This document shows positions 3,456 to 10,656 of a DNA stretch of 64,000 nt, one piece after another. A program made the position numbers and the translations under genes. Source of the stretch: Escherichia coli (lineage in GTDB: Bacteria; Pseudomonadota; Gammaproteobacteria; Enterobacterales; Enterobacteriaceae); the NCBI RefSeq assembly GCF_045037415.1, contig NZ_CP173438.1, one strand, 5' to 3'. The notes under the pieces are model-generated. The model was not told the DNA's origin. It made no database searches and saw only the letters and a list, made by a program, of their open reading frames with translations. The first letter of the stretch is position 1; the number at the start of each line of letters is the position of its first letter.

Positions 3456-5069
3456 TCAATGCTTCACAATATACATAGTCCGACTGTACGCCACATCTTC
3501 AGGGTTGTTAATGGGATAACCTTTCAGCCACGGCTTGATTAATCGTCCATTGGTATATTGATAAATTGGTGCAATCGGTGCTTGCTCCATGAGGATTTTT
3601 TCTGCCGCGTTGTAATCGGCATTACGCGCTTTAACGGTATTTTCCGTCGATGCCTGGGCCAGAACTTTGTCATATGCCGGATTGTTAAAGCGTGAAATAT
3701 TCCCGGAATGCGTTGACGTTAATAATGTCAGGAAAGTGGAGGGTTCATTATAATCCCCTACCCACGAGGCGCGGATAACATCAAAATTGCCGGTATTACG
3801 GCTATCGATATAGGTTTTCCATTCCTGGTTTTGCAATTTAACATCTACGCCCAGGTTCTTTTTCCACATCGATGCTACAGCAATCGCAATTTTTTGATGG
3901 TTTTCTGAAGTGTTATACAAAAGCGTCAGCTTCAGCGGTTTTTGCGGACCATAACCAGCGGCGCTCAACAAAGTTTTTGCCTGCGCATTCAGTTCTTCCT
4001 GACTCATTTGTTCAAACGGCGAAGGTTCCGGCGTAAATCCCGCGGTAACATCTGGTGTAAAATGCCACGCTGGCTTTTCGCCCGTCCCCAACACTTTTTC
4101 GGTCATCAGGCGGCGATCTATCGTCATACTTAATGCCAGGCGAACGCGCTGATCTGCCGTCGGCCCTTTTTGCGTGTTAAACGCATAATAATAGGTCCCG
4201 AGCTGCGGCGGCGTATAAACCTGCCCCGGAATATCCTTCAACAGCTTCTGATACATATTTTTCGGGAAGGATTCGGTGATATCAATATCCCCCGCGAGAT
4301 AACGCTTAGTGGCTGCGGATTCCTGATTAATTGGCAGGAAGGTCACTTTTTGCAGTACCGTTTTGGCGTTATCCCAATAATGGGTATTCGGCACTACGAC
4401 CAGTTTTTCATTGACTACGCGCTCTTTAAGAACATAAGCGCCATTGCCGATCAGATTTCCGGGTTTCGTCCACTCTTTACTGCTTTCTACGTTGGCTTTT
4501 TGCACCGGGAAGAAGGCAAAGTTAGCGGTTAAATTCACAAACCACGGCAACGGTTTATCAAGCTGGATTTTCAAAGTATGGGCATCAACTGCGGTAACGC
4601 CAAGCTGGTCAGGCGTGGCTTTACCATCAATAATCGCCTGTGCGTTGTTGATTCCCGCCAGCGCGGCAAACCATGCAAATGGCGAAAGCGTTTTCGGGTC
4701 CACCAGACGTTGCCAGCTGTAGACAAAATCTTGCGCCGTTACCGGTGTGCCATCCGCCCATTTTGCGTTATCGCGCAGGGTAAAAGTCCAGATACGGTTG
4801 TCATTACTTTTCCACTGAGTCGCAACGCCGGGGACAATCTCCCCTTTCTCGTTCTGATTCACCAGTCCTTCAAACAGATCGCGAATGACCTGAATCTCCG
4901 GCAGGCCCACGGCTTTAGCGGGATCCAGCGACGCTGGCTCATCTTTAATGTGGCGCACCAGCTCCTGCTTCTCTGCCAGTACTGTGCCGCTCGGAACTTC
5001 AGCAGCATACGAAAGAGAAATGCTGCTGACCAACAGCGCACAACACGTGACTGAAACAGAGTGCTTCAT
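3456..5069 (-). CDS. mppA: Periplasmic murein tripeptide-binding protein MppA (OppA paralog)
   Basis: ORF 3456..5090; start placed at MKHSVSVTCCALL (signal peptide) giving 537 aa; SBP family 5. Confidence 0.9.
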   Translation of the reverse strand: MKHSVSVTCCALLVSSISLSYAAEVPSGTVLAEKQELVRHIKDEPASLDPAKAVGLPEIQVIRDLFEGLVNQNEKGEIVPGVATQWKSNDNRIWTFTLRDNAKWADGTPVTAQDFVYSWQRLVDPKTLSPFAWFAALAGINNAQAIIDGKATPDQLGVTAVDAHTLKIQLDKPLPWFVNLTANFAFFPVQKANVESSKEWTKPGNLIGNGAYVLKERVVNEKLVVVPNTHYWDNAKTVLQKVTFLPINQESAATKRYLAGDIDITESFPKNMYQKLLKDIPGQVYTPPQLGTYYYAFNTQKGPTADQRVRLALSMTIDRRLMTEKVLGTGEKPAWHFTPDVTAGFTPEPSPFEQMSQEELNAQAKTLLSAAGYGPQKPLKLTLLYNTSENHQKIAIAVASMWKKNLGVDVKLQNQEWKTYIDSRNTGNFDVIRASWVGDYNEPSTFLTLLTSTHSGNISRFNNPAYDKVLAQASTENTVKARNADYNAAEKILMEQAPIAPIYQYTNGRLIKPWLKGYPINNPEDVAYSRTMYIVKH

Positions 5070-5125
5070 AAGTTTCCCTCTAACCGACATTAAAATTGAT
5101 GCGTAATTATTTGTTTCGCCTTAAA

Positions 5126-5161
5126 GAAATGCAAACAACTTCCATCAAAAAAGTGACAAAG
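5126..5161 (+). repeat. Copy A of a ~36-bp conserved element (AATGCAAACAACTTCC..CAAAAAAGTGA), upstream of mppA
   Basis: Near-identical to 8237..8273 (about 33 of 38 positions by eye). Confidence 0.7.
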
Positions 5162-5405
5162 GAAGCATCAAATGTTTTAAGTATCAATATATCAAATCAG
5201 ATTTAGTGTAAATAATAGTCTCCAAAATGCGGTAAAGCACATAGAACTCCGAACACTACGTTCGGGCTTCGCACATTCAAACCCGTTTTCGGTATCATAA
5301 TCAGCATCTGTCGCCATTGTGCGAAGAATAAAAAATAACCAAAACGTTGAAAGGAACTGAGAATACGTTAAGAGAAGAATTAAATTAATGTATCAGCAAG
5401 TAGTG

Positions 5406-6305
5406 CTAAACAGCACCTTTATACTTCAGCCTATCTATAAATAATGAGAATGCCGAGCCAGCATGTCGACGGTGTGGATAGTACAGGTGATAACCGGGTA
5501 AATCTGGTGTGAATTTATCCAAAACACGTATCAGTTTTTTTTCTTTAATAGCCCGCTCCACCTGATCATAAGGTAGATACGCCAATCCATGCCCATCAAT
5601 TGCAGCATCAATGATCAGATCTATCGTATTCAGTAAAAGCTGACCTTCCATGCGAACACGAACTTCACGTCCACCGCGTATTAATCTCCAGCGATTTGCT
5701 GTACCCGATGTGGGAAGATACAAATTAATTGCCTGATGATCTATTAATTGTGACACTGACGTTGGAGCACTTCGACGAGAAAAATAATCCGGTGAGCCAA
5801 CAATAGCCATTGGTATGTCTGGCCCGATTCGAATGGCGATCATATCTTTATCCATCTCCCCACCCAGACGGACGCCTGCATCAAAACGTTCAGAAACGAC
5901 ATCGGTCAAACCATAATCAATGGTAAGCTGAATATCAATTTCAGGATGCGATTTCAGGAATGTGCGCATGGCTGGTAACAATATCGTTTTTGCTGCATGT
6001 TCTACAGTAGTAATACGTATTGTCCCGGATGGGCGGTTCTGCAGATCGCTCAGGGATGTCAGGGCAGAATCTATGTCATGCAACATAGGGCCAAGAACAG
6101 ACAAAAGATGCTCGCCCGCTTCAGTGGGTACAACGCTGCGCGTGGTTCGCGTCAGAAGCCGCAATCCCAATCGTTCTTCTATACGGCGCACTATCTGGCT
6201 TAAAGCTGACTGCGCCATGCTCAGGCGGGCTGCTGCGCGAGTGAAGCTACGCTCCTCTGCAACAACGACAAACGCCATCAGATCAGCGATTTCTTCACGC
6301 TTCAT
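5406..6305 (-). CDS. ycjZ: LysR-family transcriptional regulator YcjZ
   Basis: 299-aa ORF; N-terminal LysR HTH (FTRAAARLSMAQSALSQ) and substrate-binding domain. Confidence 0.85.
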   Translation of the reverse strand: MKREEIADLMAFVVVAEERSFTRAAARLSMAQSALSQIVRRIEERLGLRLLTRTTRSVVPTEAGEHLLSVLGPMLHDIDSALTSLSDLQNRPSGTIRITTVEHAAKTILLPAMRTFLKSHPEIDIQLTIDYGLTDVVSERFDAGVRLGGEMDKDMIAIRIGPDIPMAIVGSPDYFSRRSAPTSVSQLIDHQAINLYLPTSGTANRWRLIRGGREVRVRMEGQLLLNTIDLIIDAAIDGHGLAYLPYDQVERAIKEKKLIRVLDKFTPDLPGYHLYYPHRRHAGSAFSLFIDRLKYKGAV

Positions 6306-6442
6306 TCAGTATCTCCATACAATCTATTAATCATTTAAATGATAGGTCTAATCATGATTTTGGGTCTAATCAACTTAATGATCAATATCTATAGTGATAT
6401 CACCAACCGTTAAAACGAACCGACAACTCCATGAGGAACGGA

Positions 6443-7363
6443 ATGATGAATAATAAAGTCAGCTTCACTAACAGCAATAATCCAACCATCTCTTTGTCTG
6501 CAGTGATCTATTTCCCTCCAAAATTTGATGAAACCCGTCAGTATCCGGCAATTGTGGTATCTCACCCAGGTGGGGGCGTTAAAGAGCAAACGGCCGGAAC
6601 CTATGCCGAAAAACTGGCGGAAAAAGGATTTGTCACTATTGCTTATGACGCATCTTATCAAGGTGAAAGCGGCGGCGAGCCGCGTCAGTTAGAAAACCCA
6701 TACATTCGTACTGAAGACGTCAGTGCCGTGATTGATTACCTGACAACGCTTTCTTATGTCGACAATACCCGAATTGGTGCGATGGGAATTTGTGCCGGTG
6801 CAGGATATACAGCCAATGCTGCAATTCAGGATCGCCGCATCAAGGCCATCGGTACTGTTAGTGCGGTCAATATTGGTTCGATGTTCCGTAATGGTTGGGA
6901 AAACAATGTGAAATCTATTGATGCCCTACCATACGTTGACGCGGGTTCAAACGCCCGAACCAGCGATATTAGCAGCGGAGAATACGCCACTATGCCACTG
7001 GCACCAATGAAGGAGTCCGATGCGCCGAACGAAGAACTGCGTCAGGCCTGGGAATATTACCACACCCCTCGCGCGCAGTATCCAACAGCACCGGGTTACG
7101 CTACTTTGCGCAGCCTTAACCAGATTATTACCTATGATGCTTACCATATGGCGGAAGTGTACCTGACTCAGCCGATACAGATTGTGGCGGGCAGCCTGGC
7201 TGGGAGCAAATGGATGAGTGACGACCTGTACGATCGAGCATCAAGCCAGGATAAACGCTATCACATTGTTGAAGGCGCAAACCATATGGATCTTTATGAT
7301 GGCAAAGTCTATGTGGCTGAAGTAATTTCAGTATTAGCTCCGTTCTTTGAGGAAACTCTGTAA
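6443..7363 (+). CDS. ycjY: Alpha/beta-hydrolase family protein YcjY
   Basis: ORF 6431..7363; start placed at second/third ATG after an AGGA; GxCxG nucleophile-elbow-like motif (MGICAGAG). Confidence 0.8.
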   Translation: MMNNKVSFTNSNNPTISLSAVIYFPPKFDETRQYPAIVVSHPGGGVKEQTAGTYAEKLAEKGFVTIAYDASYQGESGGEPRQLENPYIRTEDVSAVIDYLTTLSYVDNTRIGAMGICAGAGYTANAAIQDRRIKAIGTVSAVNIGSMFRNGWENNVKSIDALPYVDAGSNARTSDISSGEYATMPLAPMKESDAPNEELRQAWEYYHTPRAQYPTAPGYATLRSLNQIITYDAYHMAEVYLTQPIQIVAGSLAGSKWMSDDLYDRASSQDKRYHIVEGANHMDLYDGKVYVAEVISVLAPFFEETL

Positions 7364-7433
7364 TGAAACATATTCAAATCCGTAATAGTGATATGGCCTG
7401 GCATATTGCTGCCAATAATCTGGGAAAAGTTTC

Positions 7434-8072
7434 ATGAAAAATGTACTGATTCTTGGTGCTGGCGGTCAGATAGCCCGCCATGTGATTAATCAACTGGCAG
7501 ATAAACAAACCATTAAACAAACTTTATTTGCCCGTCAGCCAGCAAAAATCCACAAACCCTATCCAACTAATAGCAAGATTATTATGGGGGATGTACTGAA
7601 TCATGCAGCACTGAAGCAGGCCATGCAGGGACAGGATGTTGTGTATGCCAACCTTACGGGGGAAGATTTAGATATTCAGGCAAATTCAGTGATCGCTGCG
7701 ATGAAAGCCTGTGATGTTAAACGTCTGATCTTTGTTCTTTCCCTCGGTATTTATGATGAAGTTCCAGGAAAATTTGGCGAATGGAATAATGCAGTTATTG
7801 GTGAACCCCTAAAACCATTCCGCAGGGCTGCGGATGCAATTGAGGCTTCTGGACTGGAATATACAATTCTTCGCCCTGCCTGGCTGACTGATGAAGATAT
7901 TATTGATTATGAGCTTACCTCACGCAATGAACCATTCAAAGGTACGATCGTATCACGTAAGAGTGTCGCAGCATTAATCACAGATATCATCGATAAACCT
8001 GAGAAACACATTGGTGAGAATATAGGCATCAATCAACCCGGGACTGATGGTGATAAGCCCTTCTTCATGTAA
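7434..8072 (+). CDS. NAD(P)-binding NmrA/SDR-like oxidoreductase (ymjC-like, apparently intact)
   Basis: 212-aa ORF; N-terminal Rossmann motif VLILGAGGQIARHV. Confidence 0.75.
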   Translation: MKNVLILGAGGQIARHVINQLADKQTIKQTLFARQPAKIHKPYPTNSKIIMGDVLNHAALKQAMQGQDVVYANLTGEDLDIQANSVIAAMKACDVKRLIFVLSLGIYDEVPGKFGEWNNAVIGEPLKPFRRAADAIEASGLEYTILRPAWLTDEDIIDYELTSRNEPFKGTIVSRKSVAALITDIIDKPEKHIGENIGINQPGTDGDKPFFM

Positions 8073-8090
8073 ATCAATTATATAGCTACC

Positions 8091-8117
8091 ATCGTACTGT
8101 ACTATGTGCAGTACGAT
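8091..8117 (+). terminator. Hairpin downstream of the ymjC-like gene
   Basis: ATCGTACTG / CAGTACGAT 9-bp inverted repeat followed by an AT-rich tract. Confidence 0.4.
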
Positions 8118-8236
8118 TTATTAAACTTATTAAGGTGAACTGATCAATCAGATGCGATTAACATGTGTAGAACCAGTAAGAATAAAATACGCCATGTATA
8201 TAACATTACGACAATTCTAATATCTGCACATCAATG

Positions 8237-8273
8237 AAAATGCAAACAACTTCCGGCAAAAAAGTGATACAAG
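8237..8273 (+). repeat. Copy B of the ~36-bp conserved element, upstream of mpaA
   Basis: Near-identical to 5126..5161. Confidence 0.7.
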
Positions 8274-8362
8274 ATCGATGACATAGCGTTGAAGAAAAGG
8301 ATTTGATAATCCGCAAAATTTGCACAACACTGCCTGTAATACTTCCTGAACCAGAGACGATC

Positions 8363-9091
8363 ATGACCGTAACTCGCCCACGCGCCGAACGCGGCGCATT
8401 TCCGCCCGGAACAGAACATTACGGACGTTCATTATTGGGCGCGCCGTTAATCTGGTTTCCGGCCCCTGCAGCCAGTCACGAAAGTGGTTTGATTCTGGCT
8501 GGCACTCACGGTGATGAAAACTCTTCGATCGTCACGCTCTCCTGTGCTCTGCGGACTTTGACACCTTCTTTGCGCCGCCATCATGTGGTGCTGTGTGTGA
8601 ATCCTGACGGCTGCCAGTTAGGGTTACGGGCCAATGCTAATGGTGTGGATTTAAACCGAAACTTTCCGGCAGCGAACTGGAAGGAAGGTGAAACAGTTTA
8701 TCGCTGGAACAGCGCCGCTGAAGAACGTGATGTTGTATTACTGACAGGTGACAAACCTGGCTCCGAACCTGAAACCCAGGCGCTGTGCCAGCTTATACAC
8801 CGCATTCAACCTGCCTGGGTGGTCTCATTCCACGATCCGCTGGCCTGTATTGAAGATCCCAGACACAGCGAATTAGGTGAATGGCTGGCCCAGGCGTTTG
8901 AATTGCCTCTGGTAACCAGCGTCGGTTATGAAACGCCTGGCTCTTTCGGCAGTTGGTGTGCAGATCTCAACTTGCATTGCATCACCGCAGAGTTTCCACC
9001 CATCTCCTCCGACGAAGCCAGCGAAAAATATCTCTTTGCGATGGCAAACTTGCTGCGCTGGCATCCTAAAGATGCAATTCGCCCGTCGTGA
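8363..9091 (+). CDS. mpaA: Murein peptide amidase A (gamma-D-Glu-meso-DAP amidase, M14 family)
   Basis: ORF 8303..9091; start placed at MTVTRPRAERG giving 242 aa; zinc-carboxypeptidase-like HGDE motif. Confidence 0.9.
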   Translation: MTVTRPRAERGAFPPGTEHYGRSLLGAPLIWFPAPAASHESGLILAGTHGDENSSIVTLSCALRTLTPSLRRHHVVLCVNPDGCQLGLRANANGVDLNRNFPAANWKEGETVYRWNSAAEERDVVLLTGDKPGSEPETQALCQLIHRIQPAWVVSFHDPLACIEDPRHSELGEWLAQAFELPLVTSVGYETPGSFGSWCADLNLHCITAEFPPISSDEASEKYLFAMANLLRWHPKDAIRPS

Positions 9092-10031
9092 ACTGAAGCG
9101 CCGGTTCCACATCTACCGCCAGCCAGGTCGGTCCGTCAAGATCGGCGAAACTGACCTGCGGCACCAGCGGTAAAGCGGCGCTAATGGCACGAGAGGTACA
9201 CAACATGCAGCCCAGCATCAGACGAAAACCTTGTGCACGCGCTTCAGTCGCCAGCGCCAGCGCTTCCGTCAGACCACCGGTTTTATCAAGCTTAATGTTA
9301 ACCATCTCATAGCGCCCTTTCAGCGCCTTCAGATTGCTACGAGTATGACAACTTTCATCAGCACAAATCGGTAACGGATGAATAAAATTCTCCAGCGCCG
9401 CATCGTCCTGCGCAGGAAGCGGTTGTTCAAGCATCGCAACGCCTAAATCCGCCAATAGCTGGCAACGCGCCGCCAACCCTTCTGCACGCCAGGATTCATT
9501 TGCATCAACGATCAGCGTCGCATCGGGCACAGCTGTGCGAATTGCCACCATCCGCTCACTGATAAGATGGTTATCCAGCTTCACTTTCAGTAATTTCGCG
9601 CCTGCCTGCCAGAGTGTTGATGCACTATTGGCCATCTGATCAGGCGTACCGATGACTATCGTCTGTGCCGTGGTGACTGTCTCGGGAAGCGTTATGCCGA
9701 TCAAATCAGCCAGCGATTGCTGCTGTTTTCGCGCCGCCAGATCCCACAATGCACAATCCAGCGCATTACGTGCTGCGCCGGCAGGGAGGATTTTTTGCAA
9801 CTCCTCCCGTGTCAGCCCTTTCTCTAGTTGCGGCACGACGCTCATAATTTGCGCCATTACCGAGGCATCGCTTTCCCCATAACGCGGATACGGCGTGCAT
9901 TCACCGGTGCCTTTGATACCCTCTTCTTCCAGTTCAACCACCACCACGCGCGCTTCACTGCGACTTCCCCGAGCAATCACAAACGGGGTATGTAAGGGCC
10001 AGGCCTCCTCAAATACCTTAACGGTTCTCAT
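9066..10031 (-). CDS. ycjG: L-Ala-D/L-Glu epimerase (enolase superfamily)
   Basis: ORF 9066..10073; start placed at MRTVKVFEEAW giving 321 aa; 3' end overlaps mpaA 3' end by 26 bp. Confidence 0.9.
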   Translation of the reverse strand: MRTVKVFEEAWPLHTPFVIARGSRSEARVVVVELEEEGIKGTGECTPYPRYGESDASVMAQIMSVVPQLEKGLTREELQKILPAGAARNALDCALWDLAARKQQQSLADLIGITLPETVTTAQTIVIGTPDQMANSASTLWQAGAKLLKVKLDNHLISERMVAIRTAVPDATLIVDANESWRAEGLAARCQLLADLGVAMLEQPLPAQDDAALENFIHPLPICADESCHTRSNLKALKGRYEMVNIKLDKTGGLTEALALATEARAQGFRLMLGCMLCTSRAISAALPLVPQVSFADLDGPTWLAVDVEPALQFTTGELHL

Positions 10032-10149
10032 CTTTACTCCTTGTTGTCGCGGTGGTCTGCGGATTAAGCGCAAATAGCGTTTGCTGTGTTATTGACAGTT
10101 AGCATAAACTAGGTGTGACGTTAACTATATGTAAACAGGAAAGATAATC

Positions 10150-10656
10150 ATGTCACAAACCGTTCATTTCCAGGGCAACCCGGTTACAGTCGCCAATTCC
10201 ATCCCGCAGGCGGGTAGCAAAGCGCAGACTTTTACTCTCGTGGCAAAAGATCTGTCTGACGTCACCCTCGGTCAGTTTGCGGGTAAACGCAAAGTGCTGA
10301 ACATTTTCCCGAGTATTGATACCGGTGTTTGCGCCGCATCAGTACGTAAGTTTAACCAACTGGCAACCGAGATCGACAACACCGTTGTGCTGTGTATCTC
10401 TGCCGATCTGCCGTTCGCCCAGTCTCGTTTCTGCGGCGCAGAAGGTCTGAACAACGTTATCACCCTCTCCACTTTCCGTAACGCTGAATTCCTGCAAGCC
10501 TACGGTGTGGCAATTGCTGATGGCCCACTGAAAGGTCTGGCAGCGCGTGCCGTTGTGGTTATTGATGAAAATGACAATGTGATTTTCAGCCAGCTGGTGG
10601 ATGAAATCACCACCGAGCCGGATTACGAAGCAGCTCTGGCTGTACTGAAAGCATAA
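10150..10656 (+). CDS. tpx: Thiol peroxidase (atypical 2-Cys peroxiredoxin)
   Basis: 168-aa ORF; recognised sequence. Confidence 0.95.

Follow-up and report, generated by a model that had tools for sequence, protein, structure and literature searches.

The genes mpaA and ycjG of Escherichia coli converge and end inside each other, and the locus raises the question of whether this arrangement regulates the two genes or simply marks where their stop codons have come to lie. MpaA frees L-Ala-D-Glu from the murein tripeptide, and YcjG then epimerises L-Ala-D-Glu. The original prediction, drawn from the letters of the window alone (the window being the whole stretch of DNA analysed, 64,000 nucleotides), held that the overlap leaves no room for terminators, makes each transcript antisense to the other's 3' end and could impose reciprocal expression interference. 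In our view the overlap, which is real, probably arose passively as stop codons turned over; termination would be displaced and Rho-dependent, and any interference weak and incidental at most.

The two genes and their 26-bp overlap

The features on which the analysis turns are as follows.

8363..9091 (+): mpaA CDS, murein tripeptide amidase, 242 aa; stop TGA 9089-9091; supported by the ORF, RefSeq, NF007897 and 5HXD
9066..10031 (-): ycjG CDS, L-Ala-D/L-Glu epimerase, 321 aa; stop TAG 9068-9066; supported by the ORF, RefSeq, NF011708 and 1JPD
9066..9091 (no strand): convergent coding overlap, 26 bp, phase 123:132 (mpaA codon position 2 opposite ycjG position 3)
10150..10656 (+): tpx, thiol peroxidase, the next same-strand gene after mpaA

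NCBIfam equivalogs, solved structures and RefSeq annotation establish mpaA and ycjG as genuine protein-coding genes on opposite strands. The match of MpaA to equivalog NF007897 reaches 478.5 bits (cut-off 157) and that of YcjG to NF011708 676.8 bits (cut-off 343), the latter covering residues 1-321 of 321; structures are available for MpaA (5HXD) and for YcjG (1JPD, full length). The names given to the pair in the original prediction are thus correct. The plus-strand ORF ends MpaA in ...LLRWHPKDAIRPS, and YcjG ends in ...QFTTGELHL, its TAG being the reverse complement of CTA at 9066-9068.

The genes of the surrounding locus in the window are mppA, pgrR, ycjY, an intact SDR gene, mpaA, ycjG, tpx, tyrR, ycjF and ycjX. 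The SDR-family oxidoreductase gene (212 aa, 7434-8072, + strand) lies between ycjY and mpaA; K-12 MG1655 retains only the fragments ymjC and ymjD at this site, so the K-12 'ycjY-ymjD-ymjC-mpaA' operon contains a decayed gene. In Erwinia, Pantoea, Cronobacter and Siccibacter (L086-L089), mppA, which encodes a binding protein for murein peptides (SBP_bac_5), is immediately upstream of mpaA and divergent from it; the E. coli locus has pgrR, ycjY and the SDR gene inserted between mppA and mpaA (window 3456-8363).

Each stop lies inside the partner's ORF, the TGA at 9089-9091 within ycjG and the TAG at 9068-9066 within mpaA, and these two codons fix the overlap exactly at 9066-9091, as predicted. 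Because a 3' overlap is set by stop codons alone, uncertainty over start codons has no effect on it. RefSeq annotation gives an identical overlap of 26 bp in strain SK1144, whose DNA is 100% identical, and in K-12 MG1655 (ycjG 1388930..1389895, mpaA 1389870..1390598); three divergent E. coli strains have it too. The prediction would have fallen had a verified earlier stop in either gene removed the overlap. Of 5412 complete E. coli genomes, 4471 carry an identical 60-nt junction and the remainder one of 95-98% identity, and the overlap stands. That faulty sequencing or a wrongly called stop in one of the genes created it has a negligible probability: beyond the 4471 identical junctions and the overlapping divergent strains, the reading frames are backed by full-length family matches and solved structures, and the geometry is kept in related genera. 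The population data exclude such an artefact, and nothing was found in its favour.

Two insertions were seen at the locus among E. coli strains. In O157:H7 strain PV15-279 (L085, locus 1218-2460), the IS66-family element ISEc8 truncates ycjG, which carries a pseudogene annotation, and leaves mpaA and the 26-bp junction intact; this strain is in effect a natural ycjG knock-out. Strain 22872 (H1) carries an ISEc52 insertion inside the matched region.

The length of the overlap is not above chance. Read across antisense ycjG, the mpaA frame meets stops at 13 of 320 codons, giving a mean run of about 25 codons, and at this density the 7-codon run-in seen here is ordinary. The persistence of an overlap is above chance, being found in 75 of 80 Enterobacteriaceae species (80 of 215 MpaA loci) and in four of four further taxa.

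Junction turnover and the frame under selection

A search for MpaA with one genome per species found 215 MpaA-encoding loci; 80 of these, all from Enterobacteriaceae (L003-L082), were examined and both stops located in each. Junction forms at these 80 of 215 loci are listed below.

10 bp overlap (TCAnnnnTGA): 45 species, the commonest form; the values for L048 and L072 rest on partial ycjG matches
26 bp overlap: 25 species, namely all Escherichia and Salmonella and most Citrobacter
4 bp overlap: 3 species
33 bp overlap: 1 species
47 bp overlap: 1 species
No overlap, spacer of 88-331 bp: 5 species, with inserted DNA

The 10-bp form occurs in Enterobacter, Klebsiella/Raoultella, Kluyvera, Kosakonia, Leclercia, Lelliottia, Trabulsiella, Yokenella and other genera. 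Further taxa reached through protein homologues overlap by 21 bp (Erwinia), 26 bp (Pantoea), 19 bp (Cronobacter) and 10 bp (Siccibacter); in these four, MpaA stops just after ...LLRW(HP/QR) and the extra C-terminal residues are on YcjG instead. Both the gene order mpaA-ycjG-tpx-tyrR and the overlap are conserved as far as Erwinia and Pantoea. These comparisons show that the spacer-free tail-to-tail arrangement is older than the Enterobacteriaceae and that its boundaries turn over.

Among the five species with a spacer, four (L043, at 4727-5038, L046, L049 and L053) have a 284-331 bp insert between mpaA and ycjG. It holds a small ORF (MIEWEDESVATQDELMKRMIDTVAAVVLVLIVVAGLYFA) on the ycjG strand, with one predicted hydrophobic helix and no match in NCBIfam, and a strong bidirectional terminator (AAAAAACCCGCAT...ATGCGGGTTTTTTT). 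In the fifth (L041), an 88-bp REP-like hairpin (-48 kcal/mol) separates the genes. Mislabelling or contamination of the assembly is probable for L049: its contig (CACSKA010000006.1) bears the name 'Chryseobacterium sp. 18061', yet the mpaA-ycjG locus on it is typical of Enterobacteriaceae, encodes an MpaA 86% identical to that of E. coli and is closely similar to the one in 'Citrobacter sp. 18056', which belongs to the same project.

One nucleotide of length beside the ycjG stop separates the E. coli form from the 10-bp form, as seen in the alignment and in the junction sequences themselves. The difference falls in a very short segment.

9062..9068 (no strand): segment between the conserved cores (mpaA W233 codon and ycjG L321 codon), 7 nt; 8 nt in 10-bp-type relatives

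Where the 10-bp type has ...CCTCAGAGATGA..., Citrobacter has ...CCT-AGAGATGAAGC... and E. coli has ...CCT-AAAGATGCAATT... at the junction. Read in the ycjG direction the difference is TGAGG to TAGG, which keeps a stop at the same codon (TGA to TAG), so that YcjG still ends ...LHL*. On the mpaA strand it shifts the frame and loses the old TGA, with the next stop 16 nt onward; the ...LLRWQPQR* end of the 10-bp-type relatives thereby becomes ...WHPKDAIRPS*. In mechanistic terms, a one-nucleotide length change by the ycjG stop would preserve the end of YcjG and let the end of mpaA read 16 nt deeper into antisense ycjG.

We claim from these junctions that the MpaA extension of E. coli is probably derived. 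The polarity of the change, a deletion in the Escherichia clade or an insertion elsewhere, rests on parsimony, and the outgroup geometries differ again. The proposal that the whole group descends from a 10-bp overlap found only partial support: this form has the majority within Enterobacteriaceae (80 of 215 loci), but Erwinia, Pantoea and Cronobacter, at 21, 26 and 19 bp, show another geometry in which the YcjG tail is extended.

Three Citrobacter loci (L015, L018 and L020) illustrate how little is needed to move the boundaries. A single A-to-T change there both creates an earlier mpaA stop (WHP*, P235) and destroys the ycjG TAG (LHLKDASAKD*); since one change moves both ends, the boundaries are easily shifted. 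An overlap nevertheless persists because the cores lie 7 nt apart, and a dispensable tail on either protein must enter the neighbour. Stop codons turning over between genes so closely set would produce the variable overlaps observed (4, 10, 19, 21, 26, 33 and 47 bp).

To see which frame selection reads, we compared mean column entropy by codon position in 23 sequences of E. coli geometry (22 species and the window).

30 nt upstream (mpaA only): mpaA3/ycjG2 0.96; mpaA2/ycjG3 0.14; mpaA1/ycjG1 0.18
Overlap: mpaA3/ycjG2 0.057; mpaA2/ycjG3 0.725; mpaA1/ycjG1 0.32
Downstream (ycjG only): mpaA3/ycjG2 0.33; mpaA2/ycjG3 1.47; mpaA1/ycjG1 0.28

Precisely where the overlap begins, the periodicity of variation ceases to follow mpaA codons and follows those of ycjG; selection thus reads the overlap as ycjG. 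The mpaA product of this region is a short, lineage-specific tail.

9068..9088 (+): MpaA tail K236-S242 (KDAIRPS), antisense of conserved YcjG C-terminal codons

Its variants include KDAIRPS, KDAIRRS, KDGVARS, RDEAVRS and KDGVDPS, among others, with 5 of 7 positions varying while YcjG keeps FTTGxLHL. The NCBIfam MpaA profile matches residues 1-236 of 242, leaving the tail outside; the crystallised E. coli chain (PDB 5HXD) ends at D237, with residues 238-242 absent; and Vibrio MpaA (4AXV) aligns only to residue 235. YcjG is matched by profile and structure to its last residue. From four independent observations we infer that KDAIRPS is probably a frameshift-derived passenger with no sign of protein-level constraint.

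The opposite reading would have the overlap kept by protein selection, the tail having a function of its own (stability, localisation or interaction) so that the 26 bp encode two useful peptides. We regard this as very improbable. The tail has the same length and ends in S* in the window and in all 22 sampled Escherichia, Salmonella and Citrobacter species of E. coli geometry, and ycjG third positions are less variable within the overlap than outside it: their entropy (0.725) is about half that of the adjacent ycjG-only stretch (1.47), a comparison based on 9 columns that include stop-codon positions. The mpaA frame or the RNA may thus place some constraint on the overlap. Yet the variation in the tail tracks ycjG third positions, the tail falls outside both the family profile and, for five residues, the crystallised chain, it is absent from most Enterobacteriaceae (80 of 215 loci) and from all outgroups, and three Citrobacter species have an MpaA truncated at P235.

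Transcription and termination at the junction

A consensus scan found no intrinsic terminator between 8050 and 10064, and its total count equalled the shuffled-sequence level. Folds of the junction (z-scores -1.77 and -0.40) contain nothing but a 5-bp palindrome.

9062..9076 (no strand): palindrome GCATC-CTAAA-GATGC, stem of 5 bp; neither strand has a U-tract; not a terminator

Scan and folds together rule out an intrinsic or bidirectional terminator at the junction, where there is no GC-rich hairpin flanked by T/A tracts. No Rfam family matched between 6000 and 12500 at E <= 1. Between mpaA and tpx there is a weak terminator-like site at 10065-10083 (+), of a kind no commoner here than in shuffled sequence.

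With no intergenic DNA and no intrinsic terminator, the complete mRNA of either gene must be antisense to the 3' end of its partner. Anatomy, scan and folds bear out this part of the original prediction, and published data agree with the antisense relationship. To speak of 'no room for terminators' is too strong: a terminator may lie within the coding sequence of the partner, and at this locus termination appears to be displaced (Rho-dependent), not absent.

The published Term-seq data of Adams et al. 2021 (LB OD 0.4, LB OD 2.0 and M63; PMC7815308) were placed on the window by the conversion window = 1398961 - K-12. No 3' end is called at the junction. A bicyclomycin-sensitive (Rho) region is reported at 1390286 (+) and labelled 'antisense mpaA', with a Rho score of 3.94 and p = 7.2e-5 (PMC7815308 supplementary file 2). 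On the strand of ycjG this is window position 8675, which lies antisense to mpaA and 391 nt beyond the stop of ycjG. Reads upstream/downstream are 47/14 in untreated cells and 58/68 with bicyclomycin, low counts taken in 800-nt windows and hence of coarse resolution. At that resolution and those counts, the published data indicate that ycjG-sense transcription runs well into antisense mpaA and is probably ended by Rho. ycjG-strand expression is low in these data. The composition of both read-through regions is given below.

8565..8765 (-): C-rich, G-poor stretch of ycjG-sense RNA; C/G up to 1.79, 300-500 nt past the stop; surrounds 8675
9092..10031 (+): putative mpaA-sense read-through region, untranslated and antisense to all of ycjG; more C than G along most of its length, with C/G up to 2.3

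On the mpaA strand no 3' end or Rho region is called before tpx, and the supplements have no ycjG entries (PMC7815308). On this strand Rho may end transcription at a level that escapes detection, or transcription may continue into tpx. We expect mpaA-sense transcription to run untranslated into antisense ycjG and to be ended by Rho or on reaching tpx. The supplementary operon tables of the SMRT-Cappable-seq study (PMC6131387) make no mention of mpaA, ycjG or ycjY.

Further published 3' ends frame the pair. A prominent one at K-12 1390559 (score 27317; PMC7815308), by its file position seemingly from the M63-glucose data set only, corresponds to window 8402 (+), 39 nt inside the mpaA ORF. It lies just past a GC hairpin, GCGCCG-AAC-GCGGCGC followed by CAUUUC (8380-8408, +). 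This end could mark premature termination or a protected processing end, and in either case limit the transcription that reaches the overlap. We rejected the view that this hairpin is a conserved attenuator: conservation of the 5' arm does not extend beyond Escherichia and Citrobacter, and the hairpin lies within constrained codons. The dominant 3' end of tpx, at window 10655 inside its own stop codon, is seen in all three Term-seq conditions (PMC7815308). Downstream of tpx a strong Rho region at about 11103, antisense to tyrR (score 19, p = 3.6e-30; PMC7815308), indicates that the convergent neighbours tpx and tyrR, with a 43-nt spacer, also overlap in transcription.

Passive overlap or regulatory architecture

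The overlap is already known: it stands in the reference annotation, and the transcriptional overlap has been catalogued. ExcludonFinder (NAR 2025; PMC12288877, Table 1) lists ycjG-mpaA among 165 convergent excludons called in at least 50% of 58 MG1655 RNA-seq samples. At the same threshold the text of that study places tpx-ycjG among 16 divergent excludons and names mpaA-ycjG-tpx as one of three E. coli noncontiguous operons. Its authors, in that text, consider excludons and noncontiguous operons regulatory.

These calls are the principal support for a reading we judge unlikely, that the overlap is part of a selected regulatory architecture, a convergent excludon within an mpaA-ycjG-tpx noncontiguous operon. 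The mpaA read-through would then form an antisense RNA to the whole of ycjG and feed tpx, the ycjG read-through would damp mpaA, and transcriptional interference together with RNase III cleavage would set the enzyme ratio or its timing. The mpaA-ycjG-tpx-tyrR order and the overlap, conserved to Erwinia and Pantoea, fit such a scheme, as does the mpaA strand, with no reported Rho region or 3' end before tpx (PMC7815308). The excludon call, however, is not independent evidence: where coding sequences overlap, a coverage-based call is automatic once both genes are expressed, and it confirms the overlap, not regulation. The noncontiguous-operon call in turn follows from the two flanking excludon calls, and the main text of PMC12288877 describes no full-length mpaA-to-tpx transcript. 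Both genes are also listed in the PgrR regulon (secondary table, PMC5934670) and, by general knowledge of the pathway, encode sequential enzymes, which fits co-expression over mutual exclusion. Finally, the overlap is dispensable, since five species hold a small gene with a bidirectional terminator, or a REP-like hairpin, between the genes, and the boundaries drift freely.

The occurrence of an overlap in about 94% of sampled species across two families (80 of 215 loci and 4 taxa) could reflect selection for the overlap itself. In its most specific form, such selection would have kept the two genes free of a spacer from a time before Enterobacteriaceae and Erwiniaceae diverged, with PgrR-controlled mpaA read-through serving as full-length ycjG antisense and as a second promoter input to tpx; we give this only a slim chance. 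If true, it would make the locus a noncontiguous operon that ties murein-peptide recycling to peroxide defence and sets the MpaA:YcjG ratio.

Some interference is mechanistically plausible by analogy. Antisense transcription represses in proportion to promoter strength (PMC4731013), and converging polymerases collide (bioRxiv 10.1101/2022.10.23.513370); mpaA and ycjG may interfere with each other by either route. Under our preferred reading of a passive overlap, the antisense overlap would cause at most weak, incidental interference (RNA polymerase collisions, RNase III cleavage of duplexes) and would amount to no selected on/off switch. The effect is expected to be weak because expression of the two genes is low, PgrR is listed as repressing both, and they belong to the same pathway. 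The joint PgrR listing, the sequential pathway roles, the low ycjG-strand expression, the spacer species and the loss of ycjG in O157:H7 argue against a mutually exclusive switch.

Comparison with known systems places the pair among short prokaryotic tail-to-tail overlaps: two genuine genes, an overlap of less than 60 bp, a moved stop codon and no intrinsic terminator (PMC2174442, PMC4161906). Convergent CDS overlaps number 58 or 75 in E. coli, depending on the survey, and only some 20% of the genes concerned possess an intrinsic terminator (PMC2174442, PMC4161906). At 26 bp the mpaA-ycjG overlap departs from the modal length of 4 bp, and its history is unusually clean in that a one-nucleotide change kept one stop and frameshifted the partner's end. 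As in the Listeria paradigm of convergent excludons with overlapping 3' UTRs, transcription units on opposite strands overlap, and the pair is named in the E. coli excludome (PMC12288877 Table 1). The paradigm concerns mutually exclusive units of opposing function, whereas mpaA and ycjG share a pathway and a PgrR regulon listing.

The likeness to the S. aureus noncontiguous operon menE-menC-MW1733-ytkD-MW1731 (Saenz-Lahoya et al. 2019, cited in PMC12288877) is that mpaA and tpx flank the opposite-strand ycjG. Unlike in that operon, co-transcription of mpaA and tpx is inferred from coverage in the text of PMC12288877; tpx has a promoter-like site of its own, and its 3' end is far more abundant than the one inside mpaA (Term-seq 114165 versus 27317, same condition; PMC7815308). 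The pair also resembles the convergent genes with converging RNA polymerases of the SEnd-seq collision model (bioRxiv 10.1101/2022.10.23.513370). It differs from bidirectional-terminator pairs in having no GC-rich hairpin with A-/U-tracts, and its ycjG-strand termination appears to be Rho-dependent and displaced by about 390 nt.

As one among some 60-75 convergent CDS overlaps of E. coli, mpaA-ycjG matters little alone. Its value is modest and lies in being a clean worked example of how an overlap originates and drifts, with a periodicity of variation that switches frames at the boundary. The locus could also be used as a test of whether catalogued excludons between co-regulated genes of the same pathway have a regulatory effect.
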